Position numbers and translations under genes: made by a program. A DNA stretch of 63,997 nucleotides, the filler included, from Jimgerdemannia flammicorona (taxonomy: Eukaryota): assembly GCA_003990765.1 (NCBI GenBank). It is 3 parts of 3 records of this genome, joined end to end, with 100 filler letters (N's around TTAATTAATTAA, not from the genome) between each part and the next. Parts side by side here need not be neighbours in the genome. Positions count along the whole stretch, not along the records: positions 21,388 to 42,668 come from RBNJ01001487.1; 2 more parts are not named here. One strand, given 5' to 3'. A model generated the notes under the pieces. The model saw nothing but the letters and a program-made list of their open reading frames with translations. It had not been told where the DNA came from and did not search any database. Shown here in pieces: positions 2,854 to 47,849 of this stretch (positions within the stretch are counted from its first letter, which is position 1; the number at the start of each line of letters is the position of its first letter).

Positions 2854-2894
2854 TCTTCCTCCTGAATAGGTGATTTGTCTTCAGAGCATCCTAT

Positions 2895-10310: not shown

Positions 10311-10318
10311 CAGACAGA

Positions 10319-10520
10319 TGCATGGTTCTCCCTCTCAGTAACAGTGCTACATTCACTGTCAAAATTCAACCCAATGCAACTGTGACTGACCTCAAGGAGG
10401 CCATTGTCAGACAAAATCTCAATAATGTCGATCCAAAGAAACCCAAGTTGTGGCGCGTCTACATCTCCGCCAGTCGACGATCTGATTCCACCCCCACCTC
10501 CATGCGTACAGGTTGCCAAA
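10319..10520 (+). pseudogene. Crinkler (CRN)-type N-terminal ubiquitin-like domain fragment
   Basis: CMVLPLSNSATFTVKIQPNATVTDLKEAIVRQNLNNVDPKKPKLWRVYIS matches the CRN N-terminal pattern (F.V.I....TV.DLKEAI....VD...L.LW.V). No intact C-terminal part is seen. Confidence 0.7.
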
Positions 10521-15844: not shown

Positions 15845-16049
15845 GAATTAAACAGCGCTGGGAAAGGGTATTGTGCAATCAACGCACTGAAACAACTAGA
15901 GAGGTACATCGACGGAGCGAACAGATCAATGCCTTTTTATGATTCATGGCGCGTTTAGCCTTCTCCCGGGTCCGACGACAAACAAGTTACCAGAGTTGTA
16001 TTACATATTGCTGTTGTTCGGAACGCAGGCCGAAGGATGTTTCGCGATC

Positions 16050-17165
16050 TTTCGACGCAACTAACAAAAGCGCGTGTCCTTTTTAGGGAAACCCGCCAAG
16101 TTTGGCAGGATGTTAATACTCCGTTCCCAAGAATGTCAAACAATTGACCAAGCCAATATAGAGCTTGTCACGTTGCACTGGATTACAGTTCTTTAGTATT
16201 AGGCTCTTTCGAATTGGACATATGCCACCAACACCCACGACGGACAGGATATCACCGTGTATTAGAAATGTTCGGTCTTGGTCTAAACACAAAATAAAGC
16301 ATTCCCGTCAACCCATTTAGGATAACCGAGCATGAGCAATTTTGAGTATCAAAGGATTTCTGGCCAGACCTACTTCCCTCCATAAGGGGATATTATCAAA
16401 TCTATTTCGCGGTTAGCAAATCTCCCAAGGTTTTCGACGCAACTAACAAAAGTGCGTGTCCTTTAGGGAAACCCGCCAAGTTGGCATGATTTTAATACTC
16501 CGTTCCTAAGAATAATGTCAGACAATTGACTAAGCCAATATAAGGCTTGTCACGTTGCCATAACCCACAGTTCCTTATAGTGTTAGGCACTTTCGAATTG
16601 GGCATTTGCCACGATTGTTCAATGTCCGCCAACGGACGGATATCACCGTGGATTAGAGATGTTTGGTCTGGGCTAAACACAAAATAAACCATTCCTGTGC
16701 TTAGTCAACCATTTCTGGCCAGACCTACTTGCCTCCTATATGTTTTGATGTGAAACGAAAATTCAGGAGACCATAGTATTCTTTCGACGCAACTAACAAA
16801 AGCGTGTGTCCTTTTTAGGGAAAACCGCCAAGTTGGCAGGATTTTAATACTCCGTTCCTAAGAATAATGTCAGACAATTGACCAAGCCAATAAGGGCTTG
16901 TCACGTTGCCATAACCCCGACTAGATTACAGTTCCTTATAATTAGTGTTAGGCTCTTTCGAATTGGGCATTTGCCACCATTGTTCAATGTCCGCCAACAC
17001 CCACGACGGACAGGATATCACCGTGAAATAGAAATGTTTGGTCTTGGTCTAAACACAAAATAAATCATTCCCGCCAACCCATCTGCAAGAAATTTAGGAT
17101 AACCGAGCATGAGCAATTTTGTGTATCAAAGAACCATTTCTGGCCAGACCTACTTACCTCCTATA
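16050..17165. repeat. Three tandem copies of a ~310-380 bp unit in the divergent intergenic region
   Basis: Units start TTTCGACGCAACTAACAAAAG at about 16050, 16432 and 16782. Each ends GGCCAGACCTACTT..CC(T)ATA. Confidence 0.92.
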
Positions 17166-21287: not shown

Positions 21288-21387
21288 NNNNNNNNNNNNN
21301 NNNNNNNNNNNNNNNNNNNNNNNNNNNNNNNTTAATTAATTAANNNNNNNNNNNNNNNNNNNNNNNNNNNNNNNNNNNNNNNNNNNN
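21288..21387. other. Artificial contig spacer
   Basis: N44-TTAATTAATTAA-N44 (stops in all six frames). Confidence 0.97.
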
Positions 21388-22199: not shown

Positions 22200-24128
22200 G
22201 AGTATTTTTTGTCAGTATAAAAGTATTTTCTAAATTCACCCCTATATCTCTTTCTATATATAGATGGATTGCTTCTTTAGTAAAGAATAGACATCTGCAA
22301 TCACTTTTATTATTATTAATATTCATGACATTCATCTATTTATATTGCTCATCCCAACTGCTTTTTTTCTTATTCTTACAATTGCAGTCATACTCATAGT
22401 ATCTATACTTATTATAGTAGAAGTATTTACTATTGAATTTGGCTCATTTACTATCATGCTGACTATTATACTGCTGACTTTGTCTCTTTTTTAGCTTGAC
22501 TTTATCTCATCCATATGCTCTATAAAAGGATTTCTCATTGTCATTATTATTATTATTACCACCCAGTCTTAATTCTTTATTTAAGAGACTTATAATAATA
22601 TTCTTATAGTCTAATAGTTTGCTAGATTCTCTTATAGTAGTAACAACTACATTATATATCTCAAGAAGACTATATATAGTTCAGGATCTTGTGTTTATCT
22701 TTGATAAGGTCTGTCAGCATAGAAAGAGTATTCACTTGATTTGCCAGATTATTGATACAGTTTACATTATTCCAGATACTCTTCTTAGACTTTATTCAGA
22801 GATTGAACAATTGCACTTTTAGGTAGAAAATGTTTGATATAAATATCTATTGATAGTAATTATAAAATATCTCTCAAACTTTATTCACTATCATAGTATA
22901 GATGATAATTTTTATTTGTATATTTGAAAGAGTAAATGTAATCTCTCTTAGAACTCTTTAATCCTTCATAGTAAGGTATCTCATTATTTATATCTATGGC
23001 TTCTATTGGTCCTCTAGACTATATTCTCACAAAAAATCTTTATATAGTACACCTATATAATATAGTTCTTTTTATTAAAGACAAGAATCATCCCCTTTAC
23101 TATTGTTAGTTTCACTATAGAAATGGTTATTAGTGTGATGTTTATGCTACTGATATCTGTTCTGGGTCTCATTCTACTTGTATTACTTAGCAAACTTATA
23201 TTTGATACATCTAATTAATGTGATATCTTCTTTACATAGTATAGCTTATAATATTTGTATAGAATACTTAGAAGATAGATAGAGAGAAGTAGTAATTGTT
23301 TATTAATATCTTATATACTTTTATATATATTAATGATGTTTATATAATAATATAGTTAGACTACAACTATATCACCAAATATTGAGTTACTATAACTAAG
23401 ATAATATAACAGAGAATATATACTATATTTTCTTAGATACTGCTTGAATATTGTATTGATATATTTACATTTATTATTTGAGTATATAGTATATATTCTA
23501 TATTCTATTTCATTCTCTATAATCACTTTAAATTCTTTGAATTTATCTAAGACTGTACTGTTTATAGACAAGAAATATATATATGTCTTATATATATTAT
23601 TATTAATAAATGTGATAAAATATCTCTTCTCTCTATAAGAAGTTATATATATCATACCATATATATCTATATAGATTATAAGATATATATTTTGTCTATA
23701 TCTTAAATGGATATTGGAATACTTTATTTGCTATACAATTCTCACAGAATTTATCATTAAGATATATTATTCGTAATTCTCATATAGATCTAATCCAAAT
23801 TATTAATAATAAGTCCAATTTCTCTATATATTCTAAGTATTGATACTATATATTAGATGTATCAGATATAGTTATCATATATATAGTAGTCTTATACTAC
23901 TTAATATACTATTTATTATATAAAGATTATCTTGTTTCAATACTATTATTATCTTCTTATTATTCTTTAAACTATATATGATTGCTTTCCTTAGGTATAT
24001 ATATATATTTTTTATTATAGATAATTATATTACTAATTGAAAAGAGATTCTTTTCTATCTTCAGAGCATATAGTATATATATACTACAAAGTACTAGCAG
24101 AATTCATAATATTTCTATAGAGATATAT
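22200..24128 (-). mobile_element. Degenerate Ty1/Copia relics (gag plus LTR, then an integrase fragment)
   Basis: Paralogous to 1530-2388 plus 9106-9516 and to 590-1300. ORF text KRYFITFINN..VLDKFKEFK..IENE..IYSNN. Confidence 0.75.
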
Positions 24129-25325
24129 TGTGATAAGCAGCAGAATTATACTGCTGAAATAATAAATTTACCATATGCTATATCTAGTGTACTAAGCAAC
24201 TAAGACAGCTTTACTGAGCCAGTCTGTATAATTAGCCAAAAATACCAGAAACAGTATATTTACCTATACTGAGTAGATACACTATACTATCTAGAAATAC
24301 TTACCATAGATAGCAATCTATAGTTAGTAATATAGTAACCTGATAGCAACCATAATTATATAAAATATCCCAGAGATAAGAGTGAATAAACCTTAGTCCA
24401 AAATTTGAACCCAAAGTAAAAGACAAGTCTGCCTACTATACTTCAAGAGGAACTCTACAGCCACTGATAGGAGATTGTGAGCTTTACCATTTCTATTTCC
24501 ACTCTAGTCCACTTTTTGATATAAAGAAGAGTCTGTTATGTTTTTGGTTTGCTTGCTAGATAAGTCTGAAGAAATCTGTCAAGTTTAAGAAAGAACTTCA
24601 CTACTATTTTCAAGAAGAATCCACTATCTTCTTGCAAAGCCAGTCTATTGACACAACTTTACAGTGAACTTGTTCACACAAATAAAGCCAGACTTAATGT
24701 AACTTTATTCAAGAAATCCATATTCTCAAAGAGCTGATTCAGAAAGAATTCACATCATCTGAGTTATTTGAGTTATATGTACTACCCAAGCTATTCATCT
24801 GTTCCCAGTAAGCCTGCTGATTCAGAAAGAATCTATGACATCCAAGTTATTATTCAAGAAGCCTGATAATTTAGGAGAATCTATGCCAAAATCAAGTTAT
24901 CTGTCAAATTAAGTTATCTACCAAAACTGTATAGGAATCTATCATACTACACAAGATCACCATATAGAAATTATATAAGAAAAACTGCTAAATTATCAGA
25001 CCATCATATATAAGAAGATTATTATACTATATAGAGATCATCATACTATATAGATATTATCATACAAATTACCTGTACTATACAAATTACTGCTATACCC
25101 AGAGACCCATCCTAATAAGGAAATTTATATAAATTTAAATTGACTGCCATGTGAACAGAGGAACTAGTATTGTATTCAGACTTAACTATTATATCACTAA
25201 ACATGAAGGATCTCAGGAATCTTAGAACATTTTATTGCTTTTTAACAAAGTAACTGGGGGGCTCAAGCCAAACTCCACCAATCTCCAATTTTGTAATTTA
25301 TCTCCATTGAGCCAGATATATTACA
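24129..25325 (+). repeat. 5' LTR of element C (~1.2 kb)
   Basis: TG...CA ends, TATAAAATA box near 24360, homologous to 52837-54195 and 58484-59352 (reverse complement). Confidence 0.8.
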
Positions 25326-28139
25326 TTTGGGGCTTATCTGAGAAAATCTCAAAATAAATGTAAATTTTCAGCTCACAAGAACTCATAGTCAAACTGGATA
25401 TATTTGATACAATACTAATCTCTGCCACTATAGGAAATCTAATTATCACTAGCATTTGGACAGGAAGAGAAGTAATCACCTCAACATTTACCAACTATGC
25501 AGTATCAGAATGATCTCAACCAGAAGTCATTATAGTATAGAATCCCCAACCAGATAATACAGATGGCCCTATTGAAAACTTTGAAGAACTTACATAAGAA
25601 CTAGAAGATCTCATTACACAAGTCTGGTATCCAGCAGCTAGATACCCCAGAGAGGTCCCACCAATCTCACCTATTGAATCTTTATCAGCAGCTCTTGCAG
25701 GATTAGAAAAAGCTCCTTCACGAATACCTAGGCTCATTTCACTTGATCTGAGGTCCATAACACTATTCTCAAGATACCCAAGTATCTCTATCTCCAGTAA
25801 AAGTTCTGAAAGTGAATCAGAGTCAGAATTGGAATTAGAATTCAGACCAGAACTACAATTAGAAGAAAGTGACGATAAAATTACCACCATATTACCAACC
25901 TATACAGAATATTCAGAGGAAGATCCTAGAGAATTCCTTGATAGAATTGAGAGAATTACAGCCTTGAGAAACCTCTCAGATAAAAGAAAAATTATCATCT
26001 ACAAGGCCCAGTTCAGAGAACCAGCTAGAGGAATTTTCCACTAAGCAGTAAATAATCCACATTCTGACCTTTTAGTAGAAATATAGGTAGTAGTATTATA
26101 CCAGCTGGAATATATATCCATGGTCTACTGGGTTATCAAAAAATATGCAGAAAATGAAATCTGCCACAAGGCTTAAGAATCTATTATGGGAATGAAGATG
26201 AACTTTTAAGAATCCAGAAGAGAAGGTATATAGCAGAATTCAGTGCTACCAATTATATCATCATAGGTCCAATGACCTTTATAAATGAAATTTCTCCAAA
26301 CATTGCCCAGTATATCTATACCTTAGGTATCAGAAGGTCCAAAGAGCAAGTAGATGCAGTTTAAGAATATTGTGATATCAGTCAAAGAGCTACCTGGAGT
26401 AAGTATGATAAGAAAGATAATAAAGAAAACATCTTGGTCAAAGCCCTGTAAGGACTCCTCTAAGGATAGGAGAGATTAGAAGAAAGAAGGCCAGCCAAGG
26501 AAGAAAAGAAGGACAGGAGTGAAATTCAAGACCTTAGTTCCAAATTGGACTAATTGGTTGGATAGATTGAAAAACTCACTATATGTAAAAATCAGAGTTA
26601 TCAAGACAACAGAGGATACCCACCATAGAGGAGCCAAGGTTATCTACCCAGAGATAATAGGAACTACTAGCAAGAAGAAAGAAGATATTCTATCTGAGAT
26701 AGATCCCAAGTCCAATACTTCTATAGACACTATGCTACTGAATGTAACAATAAAAAAAGTGACCAAAGAGACTCAGAACTATCAAACTGAAGGAATGACA
26801 CCCAGTATAAGAGGACTGAAGCTCACCCTGTTGAAGATTTTGAAGAAGAAAGCAATAGTAAAGACTACAGTGACCTAGATTTGTACTCAGTGAAAGTCAC
26901 CACTAGAAAGACAGTCTATCCAGCAGAGAAAAGGAAGAGACCTGTAAGAAGGCCATCCAGAAAAATCAGCAGAAGAATCCAAGAGGAGGACAAAGAAGAT
27001 GAAGAGGAGTAAATAGAAATACCTCCTTGGTCTCTCTTATCTTTTGTCCACAAGACAATTGAGTTGTCTCTAGAGAATGAAGAAATAGAACCAGAAGAAT
27101 GAGAACCTACTGCTCTAAAGCCCAAGAAGAAGTACACTCTGAAGACTATACTCAGAGATATTTATAATAAAGTCTGGCAAAAGATTCAAGATGCCAAGAT
27201 AGAAGTTTTCCTCCTACAGTTCCTGTAACTAATACTAGCTGGAGTTTGGAATAAATTACTAAGGACTACCAGGTCTAGTATTGGACAAGTTCCAATCCCA
27301 CAGTAAGAGTCAGCTCCCATCCTTATCCAAGCTGCAGAAAGACATATTAGCACCTACTTACATAGAGATATTGGAGGACAAAAGGCAAAAATCCTCATAG
27401 ATACAAGAGCAGCTATCTATATCATTACTAAACAATTGCTGAATACCCTCCAATAGCTCATTGATAGACCATCCAACCTCAGCATTATAGTAGCAGATGG
27501 AGCCCAAACCCAATCCCTTGGAGATATATGAAACATCACTATCTCTCTAAGATACATTCAGTTCTCCAATCTCAAAGCTATTGTTACTAAAGCTATCACC
27601 TATGATATGATTCTTAGCACCAGCTTGATGAAGGAAATGAATGCAGTTATTGATATCAGTAAACAAGTACTTAAGTTTAACTACTGAGGCAAGAAGTATA
27701 GAGTAAAGATAACCAGTTATAAGCAATAAAAGAAGACAAAGAAGGTCACTATCTAGAAAGAATATATCAGTAGTGAAGAATCTACCATAGAGGAGAAAGA
27801 AGAATCTGAAGATGGAAATGGTCCCAGGCTCAATCCCCAAATCAATCTGGTGAATAATAGGCTAGAAGACATTATATAGAACAAGAACACTGTCCCCATC
27901 ACTATTAGAGCTATTGCAGGAGAAATCAAAGAATATCTCATCTATCTCAAGAGACACAAGTGCTCTGAGCACTCCTCCAAGATAATTGGGACAAGGAATT
28001 TACATGGCACAGCCTTTGCTGAGTTTAGAAGGAAGAAGAAGAAATATAGATATATTTCAGAAATACCTGTAGTGAAAGGTGTAAAAGTACAAGTAATTTG
28101 AAATCAAAAATCATCTGAAGAGGAAAAAAGCTCTGAACA

Positions 28140-30214
28140 TATAAGAGGGTTGCTTTTTAGGATAACTGTTACATAGTTCTGGAAGGGTTTTCTAGAAGTT
28201 CTGGATATTCTGGAAGACCGTTTTCTTATGGTCAAGATCAATTTCATATGGAGTATGTCCTCTATACTTATTGATTTCAAGATTGGGTTGATGTCTCAAC
28301 CAAAGTCCTTTTTCGGACTAGTTCTGGATGTTCAGGATTTTCCGTATTTCAGGAAGTTCCAGAAACTAAGACCAGCTTAGTTGAATTGGCATATCGCTGT
28401 AGACAATACCCAATTCGGAAATTTTATGAGGGAGTTAGGAGTAGGACCTAACAGAGAGCAGATTTACTTAAGAGTGGTTTGTGGATTATGGAATAGGTTT
28501 ATTTGCTATTCATGATATTGCTATACTAGGAGTAGTTGTGTGAAGGGATATTGTGGGAAAGTATTCAGGAATGTTCTTATGTGTTCGAGTCTGTTCAAGT
28601 CTGAGATTCTGAGGTCTGAGGGAGGGGGTATTTATACTAGTGAGGGGCTATCTGGACTATGCTAAATATGGATGTAGCACTAAGATGCCTCGCTGAGTTG
28701 GAATGCAGTCATGTAGTATAAGGGTGATCTGACATATCAAGAGATCATCTGACTGCTGAGTCAGTTCGCAGTCATATCATACAAGGCTAATCTAACTATA
28801 CTATGACTGCTAGACTATTTATGGATTTAGGCACTATCTGGGTAGTCCTCAATGACATCACTATCGATTGCATCATCTCTGATGAAGTAGTCATCTAGAA
28901 AAAGTGGTTCACGGATTACTTCTCCTTATTCACTGAGGTAGTAATACATTGAGACTTCATCTCTGTCCCACAGGATAGCGTCGTCTGTCTCGTAGGCTGG
29001 ATAAGGTGTTGGTGGGCGAAGGATAGGTGTGTTGTCTTCACTTTCATTGTATTTACTGTCTGTATATCTTCTATAAGTTATGGCACTATGAGTTGCAGGG
29101 TTATAGTATGCTGGTGGCTGTGATTCGTGTCGCTCGTACTTGGGTGGTGGAGTGGTTGGTTCGATCTCGAGGGTTGTCTGGAGATACAGGTTGTGTTCTC
29201 TGGTCTCTTCATTGTAGTTGAAGTAATCGGGGGTGAAGGCAGGTTGGTATTCATGCCAGTGGTCATTGTCCCAATAAGTCTCGTATGTAATTATGAACTG
29301 TTGTAAGTTCATTGACAAGGTTGGCAGAGTGATCAGGGTTGGCAGAGATCCTTGGCTGGAGGTCATATCGGTGTCAGAGGGGTCATTGTCTTCTGCTTCA
29401 TCTTCATTGAAGTGGATTATATCATAGATATCCTTCATGGCATATCCAACTTGAGGCATTTGCAGGATATGGTCATTGGTGTGTAGGAAGGTTCTGTCTG
29501 TGGTTTCAACATACTCAAGGTACTTGTGGTTGAGTTCTTATATCATGTCGTCAATTTGGCCATAGGACAGGGTAGCAACCATTTCACTGGTAGTAACTCG
29601 GAGGCGAGGAATAAAGGTACTATACTCGAAGAAGAGTTCTCAATGTTTGCGAGCAATGAGCTTCTGGTGTTGAGACATCTGGGTAATGTCTGTGTCATGG
29701 TGGTGTTCAACCATGTCTTTCAGGAGGCGGCCGTTCTGGTAGTAGCTTGAGATTTGTCCGATTCGGTGGGCCTCACTAATCATGTTCAGAGCATTCCATC
29801 GGGCTTCCATGAAGTAGAGGGGTGCCAGGCCATGGATATTCATGAGAGGCAGGGGGGGTGTGGCTCGGTTGACAATGGCATTCCAAATGTCAGCGCGGAT
29901 TTGGTTGTAGATCTCAGTGGTCATGTTTGTATGTTTTGGAAGTTTGTGGTTATTGTTTATTTTGGTTCTCTATTTCAATGTGTCTCAGTGCTCGGTATAT
30001 ATATATTTGATCCTGATTGGTAAGATTCCATTTGTATAGATCTTGTGTTCTGTGACTTCATATTAACTCAGCTTTGTGCACTGTGACTTTGGTTTGACTC
30101 AGCTTTGTGATCAAGCAGGTGATTTCCAAATTTGTTTGGAGGTCATGTGATATTTCAGTGGCTTGTTCAGAGGGTGACGTGTAATTTCAGTGGCTTGAAG
30201 GTTGTGTGCTTACA
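28140..30214 (-). repeat. 3' LTR of element B (2075 bp)
   Basis: Direct repeat of 36736-38807; terminal TG mutated to TA. Confidence 0.95.
28827..29924 (-). pseudogene. LTR-encoded ORF (365 aa), unknown function, acidic/Pro-rich C-terminus with PPxY motifs
   Basis: ORFs 29640-29924 and 28926-29459 share one frame and are separated only by TGA/TAA stops explicable as CGA/CAA. Contains PPPKY and PPAYY. Confidence 0.8.
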
Positions 30215-30669
30215 ACTCTCCCCTTTTTAGCTTTCAACATCCTCATTGGGGCCTTCTAATTTTGTTCAGTATTGTTACACCATTTGGGAGGTCAAAAGTC
30301 TGGTAAGGTCCATTTTTCTCAGAAAGTGGCATGCTCGTAGTACAGTTGTCTAACGCATTGGATTCATATGTTAAAGGGTCATGTGTTCAATGCCATACGC
30401 TGGAAGTGATTCTGACATCATTCACTGCTGGAGAATTTCCTCTAAGGAATCTTCTTAAATGTCTATGCCTTGTTTCCCACCAGTGGTACAGAGAGAATAG
30501 GCTTGCTTTCAGTTTTGCTATTTTTTCAAGGGATTTGGTGTTCTTGTCTTATTTTGCTGAGTTCTTGGTTTGGTTCACAATAATTATAATGTTTGGGAGG
30601 ATAATATATAGTATATGTTGGTAGGTGCAGAGAATTTTGGTTCTAGTTATTCAAGGAATCATATTCCTG

Positions 30670-30815
30670 AACTAGGTCAGTAGCATTATGAAGATTGGTC
30701 TTGGGTTCCCAGGTTGCATCATGGATTGGGTAACCTTTCCATTTGCAAAGATACTCAGGGTGGCTCTTGTTGCCACGTTTGTTGAGAATTTGTTCAACTT
30801 TGTACTCTTCTTGAT
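30670..30815 (-). pseudogene. Integrase C-terminal chromodomain of element B
   Basis: [11 protein letters not shown]....[22 protein letters not shown]. Confidence 0.9.
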
Positions 30816-33800
30816 TATTAATAATGACAGGTGCAGGTGGTTTGGTGGTTTGGTTTGGAAATAACTCATCATCATTCTCATTGTATCACTTGAGATGTTG
30901 AATATTAAAGACTGGGTAAATCTTAATGGTGTCTGGTAGCGCCAGTTTGTAGGAGGTTGGAGAGACTTGTGCGATGACTTCAAATGGTCCAATGAACTTG
31001 CTGTTCAGCTTAGTAGATGGTCTGTGCTTGAGGTTGTCAACTCGATATCCTCTGATGTCCAGTAGAACTTTTTCTCCAATATCAAAGGTTTCTTCTCAGT
31101 GGTGTTGATTAACATACTGTGATTGTTGTTCTTGAGCTTGTGATAAATTCTTGATTGCGATCTGGCTTAGATTATGCATTCGGAGTAAGAATTCTTCAAC
31201 AGCTTCGACTGTGGAGAGTTCTTCAGTAGTTCGGATGAGTGTCAAAGGGGTGTTTGGGTTTTGTTCAGTGTTGGTGAAGAATGGGGTCATTCCAAGAGAG
31301 GCTTGCTTGCTATTGTTATAGGTAAACTCAACTGCAGTGAGGTGTTCATACCAATCATCTTGTCTGTAGGAAACATAGTTCCTTAGCATTTGTTCCAGAG
31401 TTCGGTTCATTCTTTCAGTTTGGCCATCAGTTTCTGGGTAAAAGGCTGTAGATAGTGCAAGTTTTGTTCCAAGGTGTGCATGAAGGGCTTTCCAAAAGTG
31501 GCTGGTGAATTTCAGATCTCGCTCACTAACAATGATCTTAGGAAGACCATGATAGTGGAAGATGTTGTCAAACAAGAGTTTGGCTATGTCTGGTGCTGTT
31601 GCAGTAGTGGTAGTAGGCACAAAGTAGGCTTGTTTGCTGAGATAGTCTACAAAGACAACAATTGCATCTTTCCCATTCTTGGTTCAGGGTAGTTGTACAA
31701 TGAAGTCCATGGAGATTTGTTCCCAATTTGTGGATGGTACTGGGATAGGGTGGAGTAAGCTGGGTTTTGCTAGTGTTGAGGACATGTTTCATTTGGCAGG
31801 CATCACAGAAAGTGATGTAGGTTTTGAGCTGATCTGCCATACGGGGCCAATAGAAGTTCTAAGAGATAACTTTATAGCATTTGTCAAATCCTAAATGTCC
31901 CACTGTAGGGGCATCATGATATTCGAATAGGATAGTCCTTCGGAGGTCTCGGTTGTTTGGGACATACAGTCTGTCCTTGTAGTAGATAGCATTGTCCTTG
32001 AGTTGATATTGATTGTACCGGGTATGCTTGTCAGCATCATCATTGTTCAGAATTTCTCAGAGTGCTTGAGCTTTCTTATCATTAGTATATGCTGTGATAA
32101 TTTGTTCCATGCTGGAGTTTGTAACCAAGGTGAGAGTTTGGATAACCTCTTCAATTGGTGGTCTTGAGATTGCATTGGCAACAATATTTTCCTTGCCAGG
32201 ACAGTACTGGATTTCGTAGTCAAAGTTGGTGAGAACTTTCATCCATCTGGCTTGCTTTTGGGAAAGGGTAGCCTGGGTCTTGATGTTGACTAATGACTTG
32301 TGGTCGGTCAATACAGTGAAGTGTGCTCCTTCTAGATATGGTCACCATTTGATCAGAGTGTCTATGATGGCTAGCATTTCCTTCTCGTGAGTTGCATAGT
32401 TGATTTCGGCATCATTGAACTTGTGGGAGTGATAGGCCACAGGGTGTCCTTCTTGCATGAGTACTGCTCCAAGGGCTAGATCAGAGGCATCAGTAGTGAC
32501 TTCATATGGCAGGGCAGGGTTTGCTGCTTGAAGTACTGGAGTAGTTATCAGGACATCTTTCAGTGCTTGAAAGGCAGTATCTTGTTTGGGTCCCCATGTT
32601 ACAAGATTGTTGAAGTCTTTCTCTTATTTCATGGTCCAGGGTTGTTCTTGTTTCTTGTTGTACTTGGTCATTTGAGTGAGGGCAGTAGTGATTTTCGCAA
32701 AGTTGGCAACAAATCGCCTATAATAGTTTGCTAGTCCCAGAAATGACTGGAGGTCTTTCAGCTTCTTCGGTCTGGGCCAATATTTGATTGCAGAGATTTT
32801 GCTGGGGTCAACTTTGATTCCATTTGGAGTGACAATGTGTCCAAGGAATTGAATTTCTTTCAGAAGAAATTTGCAATTTGCTGAGTTTTGCAAAGAGTCA
32901 GTTTTCTCGGAGTTTCAGTAGTACTAGTTCAAGGTGTTCAAGATGTTCTTCCAGGGTTTTGCTGAAGACTAGGATGTCGTCAATGTAGATAACAATGAAT
33001 TTGTCCAGGTATGGATGCAGAATGGTATTCATCAGTGTCTGGAAAGTTGCTGGAGCATTAGTTAAGCCAAAGGGCATAACTAGGAACTCGAAGTGTCCAT
33101 AGCGAGTTTGGAAGGCTGTCTTGTAGATGTCTTCTTCTTTCATGGCAATTTGCCAGTAACCATTTTGCAGATCAAAAGAGCTCATGAATTGTGGGTTGGT
33201 GAGCCTATCGAATATTTCATCAATTCTAGGTAGTGGGTAACAGTTCTTGATGGTCTGTTCATTGAGATCACGGTAGTCAATACACATTTGCAGGTCTCCT
33301 CCTTTCTTAACAAAGAGGATGGGTACACCATAGGGTGATACACTGGGTCTGATGAATCCTTGTTCTAGGAGTTTGTCGATTTCCTTCTTGAGTGCATCAA
33401 TTTCTCTCGGAGACATGTGGTAGATTGACTTGAAGGCTGGTTTGGTATCTGGGATGGTCTTGATGGTATAGTCTACTGCTCGCTTAGGAGATAGGCCTTT
33501 CTGAAGCTTCTTTGGGAATATGTCTCGAAATTTCTGAAGTAGTGGTCTGACATGGCTGTCAACTTTGGAAAGATCTTCTTCAGAGTTCTCAGGTTCTCCT
33601 TTGGATGAGTGGATGGAGATGGTGAAGAGAGGGCATTTCTTGGCCAATTTCTTAAGTTGTAGCTTGTTGATGTGAGTGATCTTTGGTCCAGGGTCACTAG
33701 TGTTGAGTGAGTCCTTTTCGCCTTATAGTTTGAAGTTGTGGCATCCTTTCTTGATGCTCAGAGAATGGTTTACCCAATCAATCATGGGGTTCTCTTGTTT

Positions 33801-34304
33801 TAACTGTGGAGTCCCAAGGATGATTTCATTGTCAGGAAGTGGTACGATTTGGAGGGTAACATATACTTGATAGTCGCCAATTCAGAAGGGTAGATTGCAG
33901 ACTTCTTTGCTGATAACATGTGAGGTCCCATCGGCTGTAGCAACTACTTGAGTTTGCTATACTGGAGAGGTAAAGACCTTGAGTCTGTTGGCTGTCTCTT
34001 CATTGATGAAGTTGCCTGAGGCACTACTGTCTATTATAATCTTGATAGGTGCTCGATTGACAAAAGCTTTAAGTGTAAGCAGTTTGTCTGATCCAATGGT
34101 AGTAATTTCGGTTGTTTGAGCTTTCCTTCTGTTAGTTCTTCTTTGAGCCAGTTCATTGACACAAGAGAAGCAATCATCAATTATTTGGGAAGAGTACATT
34201 CCAATGCCATGGGGACATCAGCCACTTGGTATATATCCATCTTCGATCTTCTTGTAGAATTATTCTTCTTTGTTCATGGTAGGTTGGGCTGGCACCTTGT
34301 TGGA

Positions 34305-34715
34305 TGAGCCAAATCCTTTGGATCCTCGGATAGTGGGCAGTAGTTCAGGGACTTCCTTGACTATCAGGCTTGACTCGATTTTTTCAAATAGGATCTGGGT
34401 GATGCAGAAACCAATAGGGATCTTGAAGGGTGTCCAACTGTGGTTTCGGATGAGGATGATAATTTCGCCTGTATAATACTCATCAATGACTCCTCCTTCT
34501 ACTGAGAGTCCTTTCAGTGCTAGACTGCTTCGACAGCATATTCTTCCAATATGTCCTTCAGGAATTTGGATACTGATTTCTATATAGACTTGTTTGACTT
34601 CTCAGTTGGAAACTGTAGCTTCTTTGGCTGTATAAAGGTCATATCCAGCTGCTTTCTGACTTCCTTTGGTTGGGGCCTTAGCAGTTTGTCTTAACTTGAC
34701 AAAGTCTAGTGTTCT
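34305..34715 (-). pseudogene. dUTPase domain of element B, between nucleocapsid and protease
   Basis: PTKGSQKAAGYDLY, RSSLALKG, GGVIDEYYTGEI, RGSKGFGSS. Confidence 0.92.
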
Positions 34716-36735
34716 GGTGGTCAGGTTATTGAGGTGGTACAGAGTGGTAATGGTTGCTTTTGTTGCTGTTCGGGGTTTTTGGTTAGGGCAGGCACTGGCC
34801 ATGTGTCCTGTCTTTCAGCAATAGAAACATGCTCCACTTCTTCGAAGTTCATTCCTTTCACCTTCAGTAAGTTTCTTGAAGGTACTGGGCTGGGTGGGTT
34901 CAGGATTTCTGGGTGTCCAAGAGGTGGATGTGGAGGGAGCTCGGGATGCTTTATGCTTGGGTTCTTCTTTCTTGGTCCAAGTCTTTTCCTTATTGTTAAA
35001 TTGTCTTTGGGGTAGAATTGGTCCAGCTGTTAGAATTTGCTTGACCATGGTCTTGATTCTTACCAGGCACCATTGTTGGTGATCACAACCAACTGGGCAG
35101 CCTTGTTCTCAGATTTTTCTAGTAAGCCATTCAGGCAGGGCATCGAATAAGTGGTCTGCTCTTGTACCATTTCGTGCTTCATCATTGGCAATGTATCCTA
35201 GACCAACAGTGTTCAGGAGTGACTCAAGTTTTGTACTGAAGGTTTCGAATTCTTCCTTGCTATGTACATCAAATTTGAGGTTGCGGAGTTTTACTCGAGA
35301 TTCAGCAATCATGGTTTCACCATGGTATTGAGCAATCATGAGTTGTTTGAGTCCAGGGGCTGCAGGATGGGCTCCATATCCTGGGGCATTGTTTGCTGCA
35401 TTCTGAGCAACTACTGCAGGTTGGGTATCCCATGTGAGGGGTTTTTCAGGAAGGGTTCACCACCATTCTTCAGCAGGTCCTCGGAAGAATATAACAACTC
35501 AGCGGACATAGGCTGTAGTGGTAGCAAAGAGTTGTTCCAGAGTGTGGTCTTGATTGTTTGTCAGAACGTGGTCAGCAACTTGCTCATTGGTCCATTGATT
35601 GGCTTCGAAGTTGGTGTCAACTATACTAATGAAGCTTTGGACTTCTTGTGCAGTACCATTGAAGGTAGGTAGGCTCAGATTTTTGGTAGGTCAGGTCTGT
35701 TCAGCTAAGGCAGTAATGGTTGCTGCCATTATGGCTACCTGGGCTGTGAGGTCTAGAATCTGTTGGTTCGCCATATTGTTTACTGGAGGCAGTTGGACTG
35801 TTGGTAATGGTGTTACTGGTACTACTTGAGGTACTGGTGCAGAATGTGATGGAGTTCTTTGGGTCTGTGAAAGTTGCTGGAGTAGTAGTTGTGGATCTGG
35901 AGTAAGAGCTTGATAGATAACTGTTTGTTGCTGTGTAGGTGTATTCTGTCCTGATGGAGGTACTTCTCCTTTGGTGGTATATCTGGGATCGAATTCAGTG
36001 AGATACTCCTCCTCTTCTTCGGTTTGATCCCCATGTAATTGGGTTTGCTCAGCGTCAAAGTAGATGGAATCAGTTGTATATCTGATTTCAGATGGACTTA
36101 ATTCAAAGTCAAGTTCAGGTTCGGTATTGGTTTCAGATTCAGGTAGGGCTGTAGCAGGGTCTGCTTCAGGTTTGGGGTCAGGTAGTTGATGAAGGGTTTC
36201 TCTTGCTTCTTCTTTAAGGATATGGTGGGCCTTGCTGTTCTGGAATCGGTAGTATAAGGCAGTCTTGGTCCTGGTATGGTGAAAGTTGGTAGAGTTGAGC
36301 CATTTGGCTACAGAGGCTTGGGCTTCATGAGGAACTAAGGCTAGAAAGACTGCTGCTGGTTGTCCTAGGTCGCTCGGATTTGTGGAGCTGACAAAACTCT
36401 TGTTGAGAAGAGTAAAGAAGGCTTCAATAAGACCTTCTTCATCTTGACTTGCTGAGTGTAGTGCAAGGAGTTCGGTGAATAGGGTTTTGCCTATTTGCTG
36501 GTTTAACTTGAGTACTTCTTTCTTTGAATGAAGTTTATCCCACTTGTTGCAGGTGTGGAGGTCAAATTGTCTTGTATGTTAGGTTCAATTCTCTTCAGAT
36601 TGTCAGATGGTTCAGGATAAATTCCAGTTCAGAGGTTGGGCTTTATACCAACTTGTAGGAATTCACAGAGGGGTTTGTAGTGGGGTGAGGAAGTGTCTTG
36701 AAGCGGAATTGGATTGTAAACTACTGCTACCAAGT

Positions 36736-38807
36736 TGTAAGAGGGTTGCTTTTTAGGGTAACTGTTACGTAGTTCTGGAAAGGTTTTCTGGAAGTTCTAG
36801 ATATTCTGGAAGACTGTTTTCTTATGGTCAAGATCAATTTCATATGGAGTATGTCCTCTACACTTATTGATTTCAAGATGGGTTGATGTCTCAACCAAAG
36901 TCCTTTTTCAGACTAGTTCTGGATGTTCAGGATTTTCCATATTTCAGGAAGTTCAAGAAACTAAGACCAGCTTAGTTGAATTGGCATATCGCTGCAGACA
37001 ATACCCAATTCGGAAATTTTGTGAGAGAGTTAGGAGTAGGACCTAACAGAGAGCAGATTTACTTAAGAGTGGTTTGTGGGTTATGGAATAGGTTTATTTG
37101 CTATTCGTGATATTGCTATACTAGGAGTAGTTGTGTGAAGAGATATTGTGTGGAAGTATTCAGGAATGTTCTTGTGTGTTCGAGTCTGTTCAAGTCTGAG
37201 ATTCTAAGGTCTGGGGGAGGGGGTATTTATACTAGTGAGGGGCTATCTGGACTATGCTAAATATGGATGTAGCACTAAGGTGCCTCGCTGAGTCAGAATG
37301 CAGTCACATAGTACAAGGGTGATCCGACATGTCAAGAGATTGTCTGACTGCTGAGTTAGTTCACAGTCACATTGTGCAAGGCTAATCTAACTATACTATG
37401 ACTGCTAGGCTATTTATGGATTTAGGCACTATCTGGGTAGTCCTCGATGACCTCACCATCGATTGCATCATCTCTGATGAAGTAGTCATCTAGAAAAAGT
37501 GGTTTGCAGATTACTTCTCCTTGTTCACTGAGGTAGTAATACATTGGGACTTTATCTCTGTCCTACAGAATAGCGTTGTCTGTCTCGTAGGCTGGATAAG
37601 GTGTTGGTGGGCAAAGGATAGGTGTGTTGTCTTCACTTTTATCAGATTCACTGTCTGCATATCTTCTATAGGTTATGGCACTATGAGTTGCAGGGTTATA
37701 GTATACTGGTGGCTGTGATTCATGTCGCTCGTACTCGGGTGGTGGAGTGGTTCGTTTGATCTCAAGAGTTGTCCGGAGGTACAGGTTGTGTTCTCTGGTC
37801 TCTTCATTGTAGTTGAAGTAATCGGGGGTGAAGGCGGGTTAGTATTTATATCAGTGGTCATTGTTCCAATAAGTCTCGGATGTAATTATGAACTGTTGTA
37901 AGTTCATTAGCAAGGTTGGCAGAGTGATCAGGGTTGGCAGAGATCCTTGGCTAGAGGTCATGTCGGTGTCAGAGGGGTTATTGTCTTCTGCTACATCTTC
38001 ATCGAAGTGGATTATATCGTAGATATCCTTTATGGCATATCCAACTTGAGACATTTGCAGGATATAGTCATTGGGGTGTGGGAAGGTTCTGTCTGTGGTT
38101 TCGACATACTCAAGGTACTTGTGGTTGAGTTCTTATATCATGTCATCGATTTGGCCATAGGACAGGGTAGCAACCATTTTGCTGGTAGTAACTCAGAGGT
38201 GGGGAATAAAGGTACTATACTCGTAGAAGAGTTCTCGATGTTTGCGAGCAATGAGCTTCTAGTATTGAGACATCTGGGTAATACCCGTGTCATGGTGGTG
38301 TTCAATCATGTCTTCCAGGAGGTGGCCGATCTGGTAGTAGCTTGAGATTTGTCCGATTCAGTGGGCCTCACTAATCATGTTCGGAGCATTCCATTGGGCT
38401 TCCATGAAGTAGAGGGGTGCCAGGCTATGGATATTCATGAGAGGCAGAGGGGGTGTAGCTCAGTTGACAATGGCATTCCAAATGTCAGTATGGATTCAGT
38501 TGTAGATCTTGGTGGTCATGTTTGTGAGTTTTAGACGTTTGTGGTTGTTGTTTGTTTTGGTTCTCTGTTTCAACATGTCTTGGTACTTGGTATATGTATT
38601 TGATCCTGATTGGTAAGATTCCATTTGTGTAGATCTTGTGTTCTGTGACTTCATATTGACTCAGCTTTATGCACTGTGACTTCAGTTTGACTCAGCTTCA
38701 TGATCAAGCAGGTGATTTCCAGATTTGTTCGGAGGTCATGTGATATTTCAGTGGCTTGTTCAGAGGGTGACATGTAATTTCAGTGACTTGAAGGTTGTGC
38801 ACTTACA
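36736..38807 (-). repeat. 5' LTR of element B (2072 bp)
   Basis: TGTAAGAGGG...CTTACA. Confidence 0.95.
37422..38519 (-). pseudogene. Second copy of the LTR-encoded ORF (5' LTR of element B)
   Basis: Same 1098-nt span, no indels; PPPEY and PPVYY. Confidence 0.8.
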
Positions 38808-39689
38808 GAACAGGAGGTTTCCAAACAAGAAGTACCTGAGGAAGAAGAGGTTCCTGAACTCATTTCCTTAGATAACTCTCCCTGGATACCACCCAAAAAT
38901 AATGATCCATGGAATATAGAGGAAGGATCCAATATAATCTCCATTATTCCCAAGCAGGAGACATACTAAGAAAGAGCTTTTCAGCTAGAAAGATGTCTAC
39001 ATCAAATGGTCTTTCACTCTCTCCAAGACTACTACTATTAGTGCCACCTATTGGACCAATAGGAAAGATAGAGACTCTGAAGATTAGAACCCCCAACTAT
39101 AGTTACACAGTCAACCACTTTCCAAGAAGTCACCACTAAGTTGCAAAGCCAATTTAGAGGACAAGGTCTCTTTAAATAAACAGAAGTATATCCCTTGGCC
39201 ACCCTTCCCCCAACTTATGATCAAGATAGATACCAATTCCCAAGATAATAAGTAATCAATAACCAGAAACAGTATTTCTGAGTAATGGGATATTGTAACC
39301 ATAGAAGACACCCAGACTGCCAAGACTGCAGACACCAGAAGATTCACCTAAGCCAGAATGTTACAATTCACACTTTGAAGAGAGAAAATATCAGAGGCCA
39401 GATCCAAAAAAGCTAGACCAAGAAGCAAGGAAGAAGGACCCTCAAGATCTATGATTTGGGAGAAGACATCCTAGCTCTTATCAGATATACAACCTACAAA
39501 GGATGGATAGAAGATGCTATCAACTTTATGGAAGCCCTAGGCTCTACTGAAAAGAGAGAAATCAACTATCTCCAAGATCCCTCTACTGGAGCCAAATGGC
39601 TGTATCTCAATCTGAGAGCCTAGAGACTTCTTACTAGTAGTGCCTCAGCTCAAGGACAGGCTGAACTCAGCAAAGATTTTACCCAGTAT

Positions 39690-40090
39690 GCCCTGCTACA
39701 TTCCAAGACCAAACCCCTGACCAAAGCTCACTAAGAAGATATATGAAATAATTTTTACAGTCTGGAGGATGAACCCATCAAGTGTGAAAGAACATTGATA
39801 ATCAGAATCAGACTAGCTATGCAGTCACCTTAAGGAACTTACATCCAACTGACCTCAAGGTCCAGACATTTTAGACAAGAAATAGCTATAGAAGGAGGAA
39901 CTATTGATCCAGGATATATAGGCAAAATCAAGATTATTTTACACAACAGTAGTACAGAATGGTACTGAATTATGAGAGGACAGAAGATTGCCCAAGCAGT
40001 CTTCTTGAAAGTCAAGATCCCACAATTACAAGAAGTCTCCAAACTGACTGAAGGAATAAGACAAACTGAAGGATTTGGAAGCTCAGATAA
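39690..40090 (+). pseudogene. dUTPase domain of element C
   Basis: LTSRSR..IAIEGGTIDPGYIGKIKIIL..GQKIAQAVF..RQTEGFGSS. Confidence 0.88.
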
Positions 40091-41678
40091 AAAGAAAGTG
40101 CATCTCTTTCAGATCAACTATCTTAAGTGGAATGTTCTCCCACAAGTATACTACCAACTAGTCAAACTGCACAAGAATCTCATCCTGGAGCCTAGAGAGC
40201 AAACTACCTTCAAAATCATTGCACCACCCGACCCCAGAAATATCTTCTTTGAATCCAATAAAGATATCCCAAATTTGAATATAGAAGGACATATATTTCA
40301 TGATAGATGAATCTAGTTCACTCCCAAGCAATCAACCAAAGTTGGGAGAGCATCATCTTGCTAAAAAGAATCATCATAGGACATTTGGTACCATTTCTCA
40401 ACCAAACCTACAGAGAAGTCTATAAGCTAAACCTATTGTGAAATAGAAAAAGGTCTCAGAAGAAAGAAAAGGCCCCTCTATGACCCAGGAGACAGTAAAG
40501 CCTTCCACCAACATTGGAGAAGAATTGACAATCTAGCAAATGTAACAACTAGTAGAACTCCTCAACAAATATCAAGATATCTTCACTATAGACTTTGGTA
40601 ACTTGCCATATAACCCTTCATATCACTATAGTATAAATATAGAAAATGTAACACCCATTTGGCAGAAATCCTATAGAATACCCAATCATCTAAAGACATT
40701 CAAAAAGGAATATATTCAGGAACTCTTAGACAATGGAGTCATCTAATTCTCAACCAGCCCTTGGACCAGCCCTATATTTATCATATCAAAGAAAGGAGGA
40801 TAGACTCTGTGTAGACTATAGAAAACTCAACTCAGTCACTGAAAAGGATGTCTATTCTTTACTCAGAATCAGAACTCAACCCTGGAACTCTGCTCTGAAA
40901 AATTAGATAATTTTTAGATAATACATATTTAGAGTAATTAGAAGTGAAAACTACTAAAAATCCTAATATATATATACAATTGTATTCATATATTAGCTAT
41001 TTCTACATTTAGTCACCAGCTCACTAATAATAACAAAAATATATTCTGATGAAATAGATATCATCAAAATAATAAAATAATTACATATAATAACTGATTT
41101 CACTACTACCAATCCAGTATATATATCCTTATAAGAATTAGCTGGATTTTCTGACAAATAACTAAAATAGAGAAATATGAGTAAAAATTAACTAAGTTAA
41201 CTAAAAACATAATAATACCACCTACTATTGAAGCTCATAATTCACCTCAATATACTATTTCTTCTTATATATATATTTTGTTAATAAAACCATTAATTTT
41301 ATGAGATATTGAGAGTATGTATAATGAGAGCATTAACAGACTTATACTTCTTCTTCCAAATATATTCCATCAGATTCTTCTATTTGTCAATTAAGGATTT
41401 TTTCATTATTTATAATTAATATCATATATATTGATATATAGATCTAAAGCTGAAGCTATGCTATATAATAGTATTATCTTGTAGTAATAGTTTAGAAGTT
41501 TCATATATATTTTTAATAGTAATAAGTATTATATATCTATAAAAAAAAAAAAATTTTTTTTTAATATGTATATATTACTTTCCAATTACTTACTAAATTA
41601 GTTTCTAAATTTAGAACTAAAATTACTTTAAAAATCATATTAATACATAATTAAAATATTTACTAATTTGATATATAT

Positions 41679-42668: not shown

Positions 42669-42768
42669 NNNNNNNNNNNNNNNNNNNNNNNNNNNNNNNN
42701 NNNNNNNNNNNNTTAATTAATTAANNNNNNNNNNNNNNNNNNNNNNNNNNNNNNNNNNNNNNNNNNNN
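42669..42768. other. Artificial contig spacer
   Basis: N44-TTAATTAATTAA-N44. Confidence 0.97.
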
Positions 42769-45700
42769 CCCCCCACCCCACTCTCTCTCAATTAAAGACC
42801 ACTAGACCATTAATTACCTCTCCTGCCCACCACTCTGTCTACAAATCTCTTTCATCAGATAGTAGCAATACTGCCCCTAGGAACTCCATCCAACTAACCA
42901 CTCTGTCAGTATATCTTCTACCAATCCCTCTCATCTTAACAACCTCTCCCATAGACCCAGCTATTGCCCCTCCTCAAAAATAAAGAGCCAATGTCCAGCT
43001 AGCCCTATCTATACAACTAAAACCCACCCTACAGTAAGCCATTCATTGCCCACCCCACCCACTAACCTAGTTCTCAAATCTTTCCAGTGACCTCTCTCCC
43101 TCTCTGGTCTCCTCTTTACACCTAGCCAGTACTATACCACTATCCAAAAGTCCTCCAGTACCTCACACTCTCCTAGCCAATGTTCTGGTATTTGTACAAA
43201 TCTCCCAACTTGTCTGACATTATAGCATACTTTACATTCCAGTAGGTGACCATCTACTAGATACCCAGTATGGAAATTCAACATGACATTCCTTTATAGC
43301 ATCTGCCACCATACTATCCAGTACTTGGGAGAAAGCCACCTCCATACCTCAGCACTCCAAGCTCAGACTTCTGCCCAATCTCAGTCCTTGCCAATCCTTA
43401 CTGCTTGCTAACCACTAGGCCAATGATCCTGACCAAGTCCCCTCTGACACTCCACTCCATCACTAATATCAAATTCAATAAGAGGAGTGCCCCTCAGAAG
43501 CAATCTGTCCCATCTCTATATAGCTGGTTTCTATAGCATCTCTCTTTTATTGCTATATCAGCACAAGCCAATATAGTGTGCTCCATCTGCTACTCCCCAC
43601 CAGAAGCCTTTATACTACAGCTAATGGCTTCCACCCAGGTCTACCAGAGAAAGCAAATTCCCCAAGGACCCCCTTGGAGAGAATCTCATCTCCCACATCT
43701 TCTGCATCAATAGCACCCATCTCTCTCCCCTCAGTTCTATAGCCTGTTTCAACCACCAAGCTCTCAGGCAGTGCAGTCTCTTAGGAAAGTCCACCAGTCC
43801 TAGCTCCTCTCGAACTACTGGCATTGAAAGGGTTTTCCAACTGATCTGGGACTACCTCCCCATCCAAATCTAGTCTCTAGCCAGTTTCATCATTCTCTTC
43901 ACCACCCAAGCTAGAAAGTCCAAGTAATAGGCAATATACCACAGCTTAGGGAACCAGTAGATATTCAGAATCATTACTCAGTCTGCCAGAGAGATGTGGT
44001 GACCTCCTCAGCCTTAAAGTACCTCCCCCCAGATGGCCACCCTCCTCTCCCATCATACCCATGGTAAGACCAATCCATACACTGAAAGGAAGATGCCCAG
44101 ATATCTCACTGCCTCTCTTGCTGGAACAATTGTTCCAAACATCCCCTCTCACTAACCCATTTCCCAGCACTATTGTCTCACACTTATGTTAGTTGAGTTT
44201 CAATCTAGAGTGTGCCTCATACCATTCTACTGTCTCCTTAAGAGTCTCAACATCTACCACTGATCTAAGTCCAACCACTATGTCATCTGCAAAGACTCCC
44301 ACCTTCTACACCATACTATAAATAGTGAGCCCTATCAACTTTTGCTGAATCCTATCTATCAAAGATTTTAAATAAAGGGTATATAGAATAGGAGACAGTG
44401 GATCTCCCTAAGGAACTCCTCTCTCTAAGGGAAATACCATACCCCAGTGCCCATTACATATCAACACTGTTCTACTACTCTCTGGAAGGATCAAATCCCC
44501 CAGGCTCTCTACTTATAGTAGCTCCCAGTTTGTCAGAGTGTCTCCAATTACCTCTGCATCAGCACCCCCTTTCTCCTCACTCTACAGACCCCTCCACCAC
44601 TCCTTCAGCAATCCCAAGATCAGTTGCATACCATGTACCTTTTCCCCCTCAGCATCAAAGACTCCATCCCACCAATATTGTACCCTTCTTGTCTATAGGA
44701 GCCTTGACAAGTACCTAGTTGGTCTCTCTCCCTCCTCAAGCCTCTGCCACTTCAACCTAGCTGCCATTCCTTTCACATGCATCTCCTCCTCCTCTCTCAA
44801 CACCTGTTTCAACTCTATTACTTCTAATCCAGCTTGCACTAACCTCTAATTATCTAACTCACCAGAGTTTATCAAATCAGCCCATTCAATCTGCAATATA
44901 ACCAATTTATTGGAAGTACACCACACTTTTTGCCTTCTTCACCTCCCAATATCTCTACCAACTTCTCTCCAGTAGACTCTCACAGCCTCTTTCAACTTCA
45001 TCCACCAGACATCCACCTGCAAGCCCTTATGTACCCAGCCTATGATCTTCACCTGAATGTCCTCTGCCCAAAGGTCCTGCAACACCTTCTCAGTCAGTAG
45101 TGAGGAGTTAAGGTACTAATGTCTGGGTCTATCTCCACTCCTCCCAAACTGCCTCTGTCCTAACAGTCTCCAGTAGTCTGACCATGAGCACCACTCCACC
45201 TCCAGAGACCTTGAAACATCTAGGCCCCAGTATTCAGTCATCAGTATCCAGTCAATCCTTATATAAAGGCCATTTACCCAATGTATTTAAATCCTCTTTT
45301 CTCTCACCCATGTTCTCAAAGGAACTAAGGTTCTCCTCCCATGCATCCAGACCACCACTCCTTCTGCCAGCACACCTCCCTCCATCAGTTCTATCTAACT
45401 GAAGATTCTGCACCATATTGAAGTCACCTCCCAGAACATCCACCCCATTCTACAAGAATGTGCCCTCATCCAGGAGACTCTTAATCTATGCAATCTGCTC
45501 ATCCCTAGCTGTCAGACAGTAGCAAGAGCCAAGTCTCACTGGCTCTTACTTAGGTCAACACCATTTCCCACATATCAAATGGTCTCCCCAGCTTCTGATT
45601 CCACCTAATTCCCCTTTACCCCTCTGCAACAAAATTGCCACTTTGCCAATCCAAGCTATAGCTCCTCCCTATTCTCTAGTTCACTCCACTTGATCCACAT

Positions 45701-47790: not shown

Positions 47791-47849
47791 ATATTGCTAG
47801 TCAAAGGCTCCAGGTCCATCCAACCTAGTATGCATATCAGCTTTCTTGA

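Follow-up and report, generated by a model that had tools for sequence, protein, structure and literature searches.

I analyzed a stretch of DNA from Jimgerdemannia flammicorona (63,997 nucleotides with filler, assembly GCA_003990765.1; hereafter the window) and found a reading frame of 365 codons lying wholly within each long terminal repeat (LTR) of a Ty3/gypsy chromovirus, here called element B. This LTR gene is real and oddly placed, an LTR being a very unusual site for a retrotransposon gene. It is probably a true accessory gene belonging to a single chromovirus family and has since been inactivated in element B. The initial annotation had proposed a protein-coding accessory frame wholly inside a chromovirus LTR, and the proposal is borne out by the synonymous bias of the variation among family copies, the lack of indels within the frame, its codon usage, and an open relative in the ENA database (P0002).

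The reading frame and its past selection

By translation, the copy in the 3′ LTR (28827-29924, minus strand) has 365 codons and a stop, and is interrupted by TGA95, TAA129, and TAA333. The copy in the 5′ LTR (37422-38519, minus strand) has the same length and nine internal stops. Both copies occupy positions 291-1388 of the 2073 LTR positions, in the sense direction of element B. All three columns with gaps in the alignment of the two LTRs fall outside the 1098-nt frame, so there is no indel between the two copies, and the equal-length, indel-free sense frame that had been described for both LTRs is confirmed. The stops had been described as all arising by C-to-T changes from CGA or CAA. This is true for 10 of the 12 internal stops of the two copies when CAG is included, but the remaining two (codons 223 and 319 of the 5′ LTR copy) are G-to-A changes from TGG. 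Codon 129 carries the sole stop common to both LTRs, all the others being private to one LTR, and at codon 333 the family majority has CAA. Both copies in element B are pseudogenes. The four other frames that are out of register over the gene stretch have 15-35 stops, and among other 1098-nt segments of the window only 9 of 186 have any frame with three stops or fewer.

The in-register antisense frame also has few stops (7 and 5), and an antisense gene was considered. Since the family variants hit the first codon position of that frame, it is not the constrained one, and this candidate was rejected. A nested transposon with terminal repeats is not supported either; the sole inverted pair around the frame is 20 nt long, 80% alike, and corresponds to the shared promoter motif.

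The evidence for past selection comes from other copies of the family. Contigs of four public runs were aligned to the 3′ LTR at a likeness of at least 85%, giving 3195, 407, 274, and 404 pieces. Thus, the family is highly repeated. The sources of the related contigs are mostly soil metagenomes. Among the best-supported 40 of 354 variant places, 25 lie in the frame; codon position 3 accounts for 19 of these 25, and synonymous changes likewise for 19. The LTR pair of element B, which has diverged since insertion, served as the neutral control. The two LTRs differ at 82 places in the frame, distributed over the codon positions as 37/18/27, and among the 76 codons that are unlike between them, 20 are synonymous and 56 non-synonymous. 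The family variants differ from this control both in codon position (Fisher, p = 1.9e-4) and in the proportion of synonymous changes (p = 2.7e-5). The third-position bias also holds against an expectation of 44%, in which the G+C-rich third positions are allowed for (p = 0.0012). The 3′ LTR copy alone carries the change at 11 of the 25 variants. At the other 14, both LTRs of element B are unlike the other copies, and 12 of these are third-position variants (p = 8e-5 against one third, p = 0.0017 against 0.44). None of the 10 indel rows is within the frame, while 9 of them are at 29937-29978, just 5′ of the ATG. An intron reading of the alignment joints in the contigs was tried and rejected, their ends being non-canonical with one contig per joint.

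The codon usage of the sense frame correlates with that of pooled gag/pol (r = 0.68), whereas the other two frames give 0.26 and 0.24, and the base composition of the frame equals that of the reverse transcriptase (RT), integrase, and gag regions. Because the synonymous-biased variation is found among copies at least 85% alike to the LTR, selection must have been at work when the gene was already part of the repeat family. As far as comparison of the copies goes, the frame is thus shown to have evolved under purifying selection on the protein while the family spread.

A diverged third copy had also been noted in the window. It exists, at 22135-21400 (minus strand), and comprises codons 1-248 and approximately 15-25 nt of leader at approximately 74% DNA identity; it is not indel-free, but consists of three ungapped pieces in different registers with many stops. 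The spacer at 21288-21387 cuts it off. This spacer and another at 42669-42768 are built alike, with 44 N on either side of the 12-mer TTAATTAATTAA, in which all six frames have a stop; they look like artificial contig joins, which would make the window a stitched pseudomolecule, with the third copy ending at a contig end. The third copy is hypermutated: C-to-T or G-to-A changes make up 103 of its 146 differences from element B, and its C-to-T rates are 50/96 at CpA, 8/12 at CpG, 26/74 at CpC, and 9/77 at CpT. The observed/expected ratio of CpG is 0.02-0.43 in the repeats, compared with 0.92 at 10-18 kb of the window. This CpA/CpG hypermutation, resembling repeat-induced point mutation, likely points to a fungal host. 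Chromoviruses with a dUTPase, a class to which element B belongs, have been described from fungi in the relevant passages of PMC2864245.

The encoded protein and its relatives

The LTR protein has approximately 365 residues and an isoelectric point (pI) of 4.5. Residues 1 to about 170 are helical by a low-confidence prediction. Residues 171-365 have a pI of 4.05 and contain 42 Asp+Glu, 28 Tyr+Phe+Trp, and 19 Pro among 194 residues. At E ≤ 0.001, two relatives were found among 1.84 billion representatives, namely P0002 and P0003. Word-indexed searches gave no relative besides these two, and the search for shorter proteins gave only P0003. P0002 is a protein of 247 residues without a stop, encoded on a 998-bp contig. 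In the protein comparison, residues 115-364 align to it with 62% identity and 80% similarity; the alignment has only two gaps of two residues each and ends one residue from the end of the LTR protein. The acidic C-terminal half is as well kept in P0002 as the rest, as seen in the blocks YQPAFTPDYFNYNE, AYYNPAT, PPTPYPAY, and PLF.D.YFIRDD. P0003 is a JGI fragment that is 91% identical across residues 1-128.

No Pfam family was above its cut-off for the LTR protein (DUF5338, at E = 0.046, was below its own), and the best match of a PDB profile search was at E = 0.47. The protein had been called undescribed, and indeed it is absent from Pfam and PDB. On the basis of these searches, it is to be regarded as an orphan. 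The ESM Atlas gave nothing usable for P0002, whose own model has a predicted local distance difference test score (pLDDT) of 0.39, and P0003 gave only unrelated clusters (0.90-0.93) with low shared-feature counts. A scan of metagenome contigs found no locus for the LTR protein or P0003, and none was found in viral contigs. A search of the whole window against Rfam gave no match.

Two PPxY motifs had been reported in the frame, and both are present. They are PPKY (residues 260-263) and PPAY (residues 270-273) in the 3′ LTR copy, and PPEY and PPVY in the 5′ LTR copy; the first is PPPEY in the family majority (place 29141). P0002 lacks both, having PLSEY for PPPKY and PLAY for PPAY, while the flanking AYYNPAT and PPTPYPAY are kept.

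Element B, its LTR, and the surrounding repeats

Element B, which spans 28142-38807 on the minus strand, is a Ty3/gypsy chromovirus that is both complete and old. The 3′ LTR (28142-30214, 2073 bp, starting with TGTAAG and ending with CTTATA) and the 5′ LTR (36738-38807, 2070 bp), both on the minus strand, were paired by blastn and are 92.8% identical across 2073 columns, with the termini TGTAAG...CTTACA/CTTATA. The 150 unlike columns are made up of 135 transitions, 12 transversions, and 3 gaps. The target-site duplication TGTTC can be read off the sequence upstream (38808-38812) and downstream (28137-28141) of the element. A polypurine tract, AAAAAGGGGAGAG, adjoins the 3′ LTR (30216-30228), and a candidate primer-binding site, TGGTAGCAGTAG, recognized by its TGG-starting pattern, lies 3 nt past the 5′ LTR (36723-36734), all on the minus strand.

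The internal coding region (30643-36578, minus strand) is decayed, and stops break every domain. According to the internal open reading frames (ORFs) and Pfam (RVT_1, 2.3e-29; rve, 1.6e-4; Chromo, 4.8e-17; dUTPase, 4.6e-22), the order is a long gag with a CCHC knuckle, dUTPase, protease region, RT, RNase H, integrase, and chromodomain. The knuckle was recognized by eye and is interrupted by a stop; the dUTPase sits between it and the protease/RT. The paired LTRs, the target-site duplication, the polypurine tract, the candidate primer-binding site, and the position of the chromodomain after the integrase are those of a Ty3/gypsy chromovirus, and the earlier description of a chromovirus with LTRs of 2.07 kb is upheld. 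The RT is 92% identical to a JGI protein, while its best named matches are plant and charophyte elements (approximately 50%), which speaks against a fungal host. At the start of the gag region, there is an open stretch of 295 codons (35691-36578, minus strand) that is rich in Gln, Pro, and Thr and matches no Pfam family; it may be an N-terminal Gag extension or a further extra ORF.

The LTR contains candidate signals on both sides of the gene, all on the minus strand. On the 5′ side, short tandem repeats (two of 31 nt and two of 25 nt) with TGAGTCA-like motifs lie at 30043-30197 and form a candidate enhancer. They are followed by a TATA-like run, TATATATATA, at 29996-30006 (LTR positions around 209-219), which is a candidate gene promoter judged by its motif and lies approximately 75 nt 5′ of the ATG. 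The A/C-rich leader between this run and the ATG (LTR position 291) has no ATG, and there is an A at -3 of the start codon. On the 3′ side, two 42-nt repeats with inverted GCTGAGT/TGACTCA (28692-28796) lie between the stop of the gene and a second TATA, TATAAATA (28629-28636). The latter is identical in both LTRs and is a candidate promoter for the genomic RNA, in the region of the border between the unique 3′ region (U3) and the repeat region (R). An AATAAA, also identical in both LTRs (28498-28503), is the candidate polyadenylation signal for both transcripts. The gap between TATAAATA and AATAAA is 125 nt, and approximately 355 nt remain from there to the LTR end.

Since a TATA-like box and a leader precede the ATG, and TATAAATA and AATAAA follow the stop, the gene may well be in U3 as a self-contained cassette, a placement that I consider somewhat better than an even bet. 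The initial annotation had placed the gene in the LTR and pointed to LTR/U3-encoded genes of retroviruses; the location wholly within the LTR stands, and the U3 placement is plausible from the candidate motifs. In such an arrangement, the upstream module (the TGAGTCA-like repeats, the TATA-like run, and the leader) would start an mRNA of approximately 1.5 kb that ends at the LTR's own AATAAA. The second module, located between the stop of the gene and AATAAA and consisting of the same motif and then TATAAATA, would start the genomic RNA. U3 would then be approximately 1.6 kb and hold the gene, R would be approximately 0.1 kb, and the unique 5′ region (U5) approximately 0.35 kb, with two promoters and one shared polyadenylation site. 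The gene would have an mRNA of its own, made from either LTR as well as from solo LTRs, and every LTR, solo LTRs included, would be a potential gene copy.

In two small runs, X6 and X11, whose RNA nature is guessed, the contig depth (a poor measure) was 400-5600 at 28282-28561 and 0-30 at 28562-28911. The depth at 28282-28561 in these runs is at least 100 times that across the gene; DNA-like runs are roughly even. The step fits weakly with a start 3′ of TATAAATA. The excess at 28282-28561 may stem from the R/U5 part of transcripts or from a fragment amplified on its own.

Element B is nested inside another repeat, repeat Z, and its flanks match 50475-47952 in reverse. Repeat Z was seen at 25171-28129 and 39026-40315, matching 52992-47952 in reverse, and has a third dUTPase-like stretch (39801-40091, plus strand). 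A second dUTPase chromovirus, element A, was found at 2388-9101 (minus strand). Its LTRs are 466 bp, 94.6% alike, and without an LTR gene; between the RTs of elements A and B, the identity is only 31%, and element A is inserted in a repeat that recurs at 22203-23403. Thus, three different dUTPase-bearing elements are present in 64 kb. Elsewhere in the window, an open frame of 147 amino acids (10097-10537, plus strand) has the Crinkler effector N-terminal domain of Pfam (PF20147, E = 1.7e-8) and lies in the only stretch with normal CpG (10-18 kb, observed/expected 0.92). The region 44000-48000 has a G+C skew of approximately -0.45 and a CpG observed/expected ratio of 0.0 at 45% G+C; the pattern is strongly strand-asymmetric and possibly reflects one-strand hypermutation of another element. 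Three tandem units of approximately 350 nt, 82-86% alike, lie at 16048-17165.

Alternative explanations and comparison with known systems

Is the frame a gene at all, and does it belong to the retrotransposon? A chance open stretch in a long LTR would agree with the stops in both copies and with the lack of any family, fold, or function match. This explanation is close to refuted and hardly credible in view of the 19 synonymous variants out of 25 in the family against 20 of 76 codons in the LTR pair, the 247 open codons of P0002 with 62% identity and in-frame gaps only, the frame-specific codon usage, and the many stops of the out-of-register frames. A captured cargo is a different matter. A gene from the host or from some other mobile element could have been inserted in the LTR together with its promoter and leader, and the signature of selection would then predate the capture or stem from a role that has nothing to do with the retrotransposon. 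LTR retrotransposons are known to capture genes (passages of PMC7264820 and PMC6431247), the gene has a TATA-like box and a leader of its own, and the third copy shares only the frame and short leader, its upstream DNA being another repeat (22203-23027 matches 1525-2358). However, no homologue beyond the two fragments was found among the 1.84 billion representatives, the frame matches gag/pol in codon usage and base composition, and the synonymous bias among copies at least 85% alike to the LTR indicates selection within the repeat family. I regard a captured cargo as improbable; it is also compatible with a later accessory use, so that the two explanations are not mutually exclusive.

Other alternatives accept the gene and differ in its position or in the role of its product. 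If the upstream TATA-like box were the sole LTR promoter, the gene would be in R/U5 as the first cistron before gag. The TATA-like run approximately 75 nt before the ATG and a leader resembling a real 5′ untranslated region are in keeping with this. Plant elements are known to carry ORFs upstream of gag, and additional ORFs are placed "upstream or downstream" of gag-pol in the text concerned of PMC7264820. However, R would have to span approximately 1.5 kb, from around 29960 to the AATAAA at 28503-28498. This is far beyond any known R region. The canonical TATAAATA at its short distance before AATAAA, with its identity in both LTRs, and, weakly, the start of depth 3′ of TATAAATA in the two runs guessed to be RNA also argue against such a leader ORF, which I consider unlikely. 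As to the product, it had been suggested that the PPxY motifs make it an adaptor recruiting an Rsp5/Nedd4-type ubiquitin ligase. The motifs are in both LTR copies, and PPPEY is in the family majority; however, both LTR copies come from a single element and are non-independent. Since both motifs are missing in P0002, the sole diverged relative, although the flanking blocks are kept, the suggestion fails on motif conservation and is left unsupported. The loss is not a clean refutation, because P-to-L and P-to-S are changes that C-to-T decay would make. Even so, an Rsp5 adaptor is very unlikely.

An accessory gene of the family thus remains the explanation that I favor, and several observations speak against it. 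TAA129 is present in both LTRs, and P0003 ends exactly at the same codon, where P0002 has Q. Therefore, the source copy of element B probably carried TAA129 before insertion. If the source copy was truncated, the full-length protein was not required in cis for transposition, and in the simplest reading at least this subfamily moved without a full-length protein made in cis. A parallel CpA-to-TpA mutation at codon 129 is possible but less likely. The third copy shares with element B only the frame and its leader of approximately 15-25 nt, and the first approximately 265 nt of the element B LTR are not shared, so the gene may be a module that is also found outside this LTR. The differences of the third copy from element B fall on the codon positions as 44/28/74, but this third-position excess is not significant after G+C normalization (p = 0.06 and 0.13); the third copy thus adds little as independent evidence of selection. 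AlphaFold2 with a four-row alignment gave an unusable model (mean pLDDT 30.9, predicted template modeling score 0.18) that supports no particular function. The variant analysis takes in only the best-supported places, the depth data come from runs whose nature is guessed, and the promoter, U3/R border, and polyadenylation site are readings of candidate motifs.

As for the function of the accessory gene, the protein might act in trans to regulate the LTR promoters of its own family, which is a guess with a small chance of being right. The same motif before both TATA boxes would permit feedback on the LTR promoters, and the acidic and aromatic tail would recruit host factors as an activation or protein-docking region. 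The fuller version, in which the LTR is an autonomous cassette and its product is a Tas/Tax-like activator or an anti-silencing factor acting on the TGAGTCA-type repeats of both modules, is speculative, and I give it little credence. If that version is true, thousands of LTRs and solo LTRs would constitute a dispersed multigene family feeding back on the activity of the element family, and this would be the first such regulatory gene in a fungal LTR retrotransposon. If, more generally, this is a chromovirus LTR gene kept by selection, it would follow that a simple retrotransposon had independently evolved the retroviral placement of regulatory genes in U3. Solo LTRs could stay active as protein genes, beyond their promoter role, and a whole gene class would escape annotation pipelines in which LTRs are masked.

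Additional ORFs (aORFs) are described for plant and fungal LTR retrotransposons, such as Grande, RIRE2, Retand, and Boty, in passages of PMC7264820, and an "add. ORF" is shown in fungal chromoviruses in PMC2864245 (in the portion concerned). Like the LTR gene, aORFs are extra ORFs with no relatives outside the elements and with many family copies. In contrast to the LTR gene, which is inside the LTR and sense, they are internal (flanked by the 5′ LTR and gag or by pol and the 3′ LTR) and often antisense; additional ORFs of LTR retrotransposons are placed in the internal region in the pertinent passages of PMC7264820, PMC12786077, and PMC6431247. The aORF class is defined by presence in most copies of a family and by an internal location (Vicient and Casacuberta 2020). 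Contig pieces covering the frame at a likeness of at least 85% number in the hundreds to thousands, but with its LTR positions 291-1388 the frame is not internal. The dUTPase-bearing fungal chromoviruses of Postia, Phanerochaete, and Tuber (Tmt1) resemble element B in combining a chromodomain integrase with a dUTPase; unlike element B, they are described without an LTR gene in the passages on them in PMC2864245. A phrase search of the open-access literature found no described ORF inside a retrotransposon LTR. Genes inside LTRs are a feature of complex retroviruses and are not otherwise known.

The nearest functional parallels are the U3 genes of retroviruses. No likeness of the LTR protein to sag, nef, or bel products was seen at the Pfam cut-offs or in the PDB search. 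The tas/bel genes of foamy viruses are 3′-end regulatory genes with an internal promoter, and the 3′ ORF of the snakehead retrovirus is reportedly a similar 3′-end gene. Like foamy-virus tas/bel, the LTR gene is a 3′-end accessory gene by or in U3, with a possible second promoter and an acidic C-terminal region in its product. It differs in having no homology to them and in lying, together with its putative promoter, wholly in the LTR; transactivation is here a guess. The sag gene of mouse mammary tumor virus (MMTV), a superantigen gene, lies in the U3 of a retroviral LTR. The LTR gene differs from it in sitting in a chromovirus of the Metaviridae instead of a vertebrate retrovirus, with a U3 position that is inferred here, and its protein has no sequence similarity to the sag product in Pfam and no signal or membrane segment that could be seen. 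Nevertheless, MMTV sag and the LTR gene are alike in being sense genes in the LTR, present twice per provirus, and dispensable for reverse transcription and integration.

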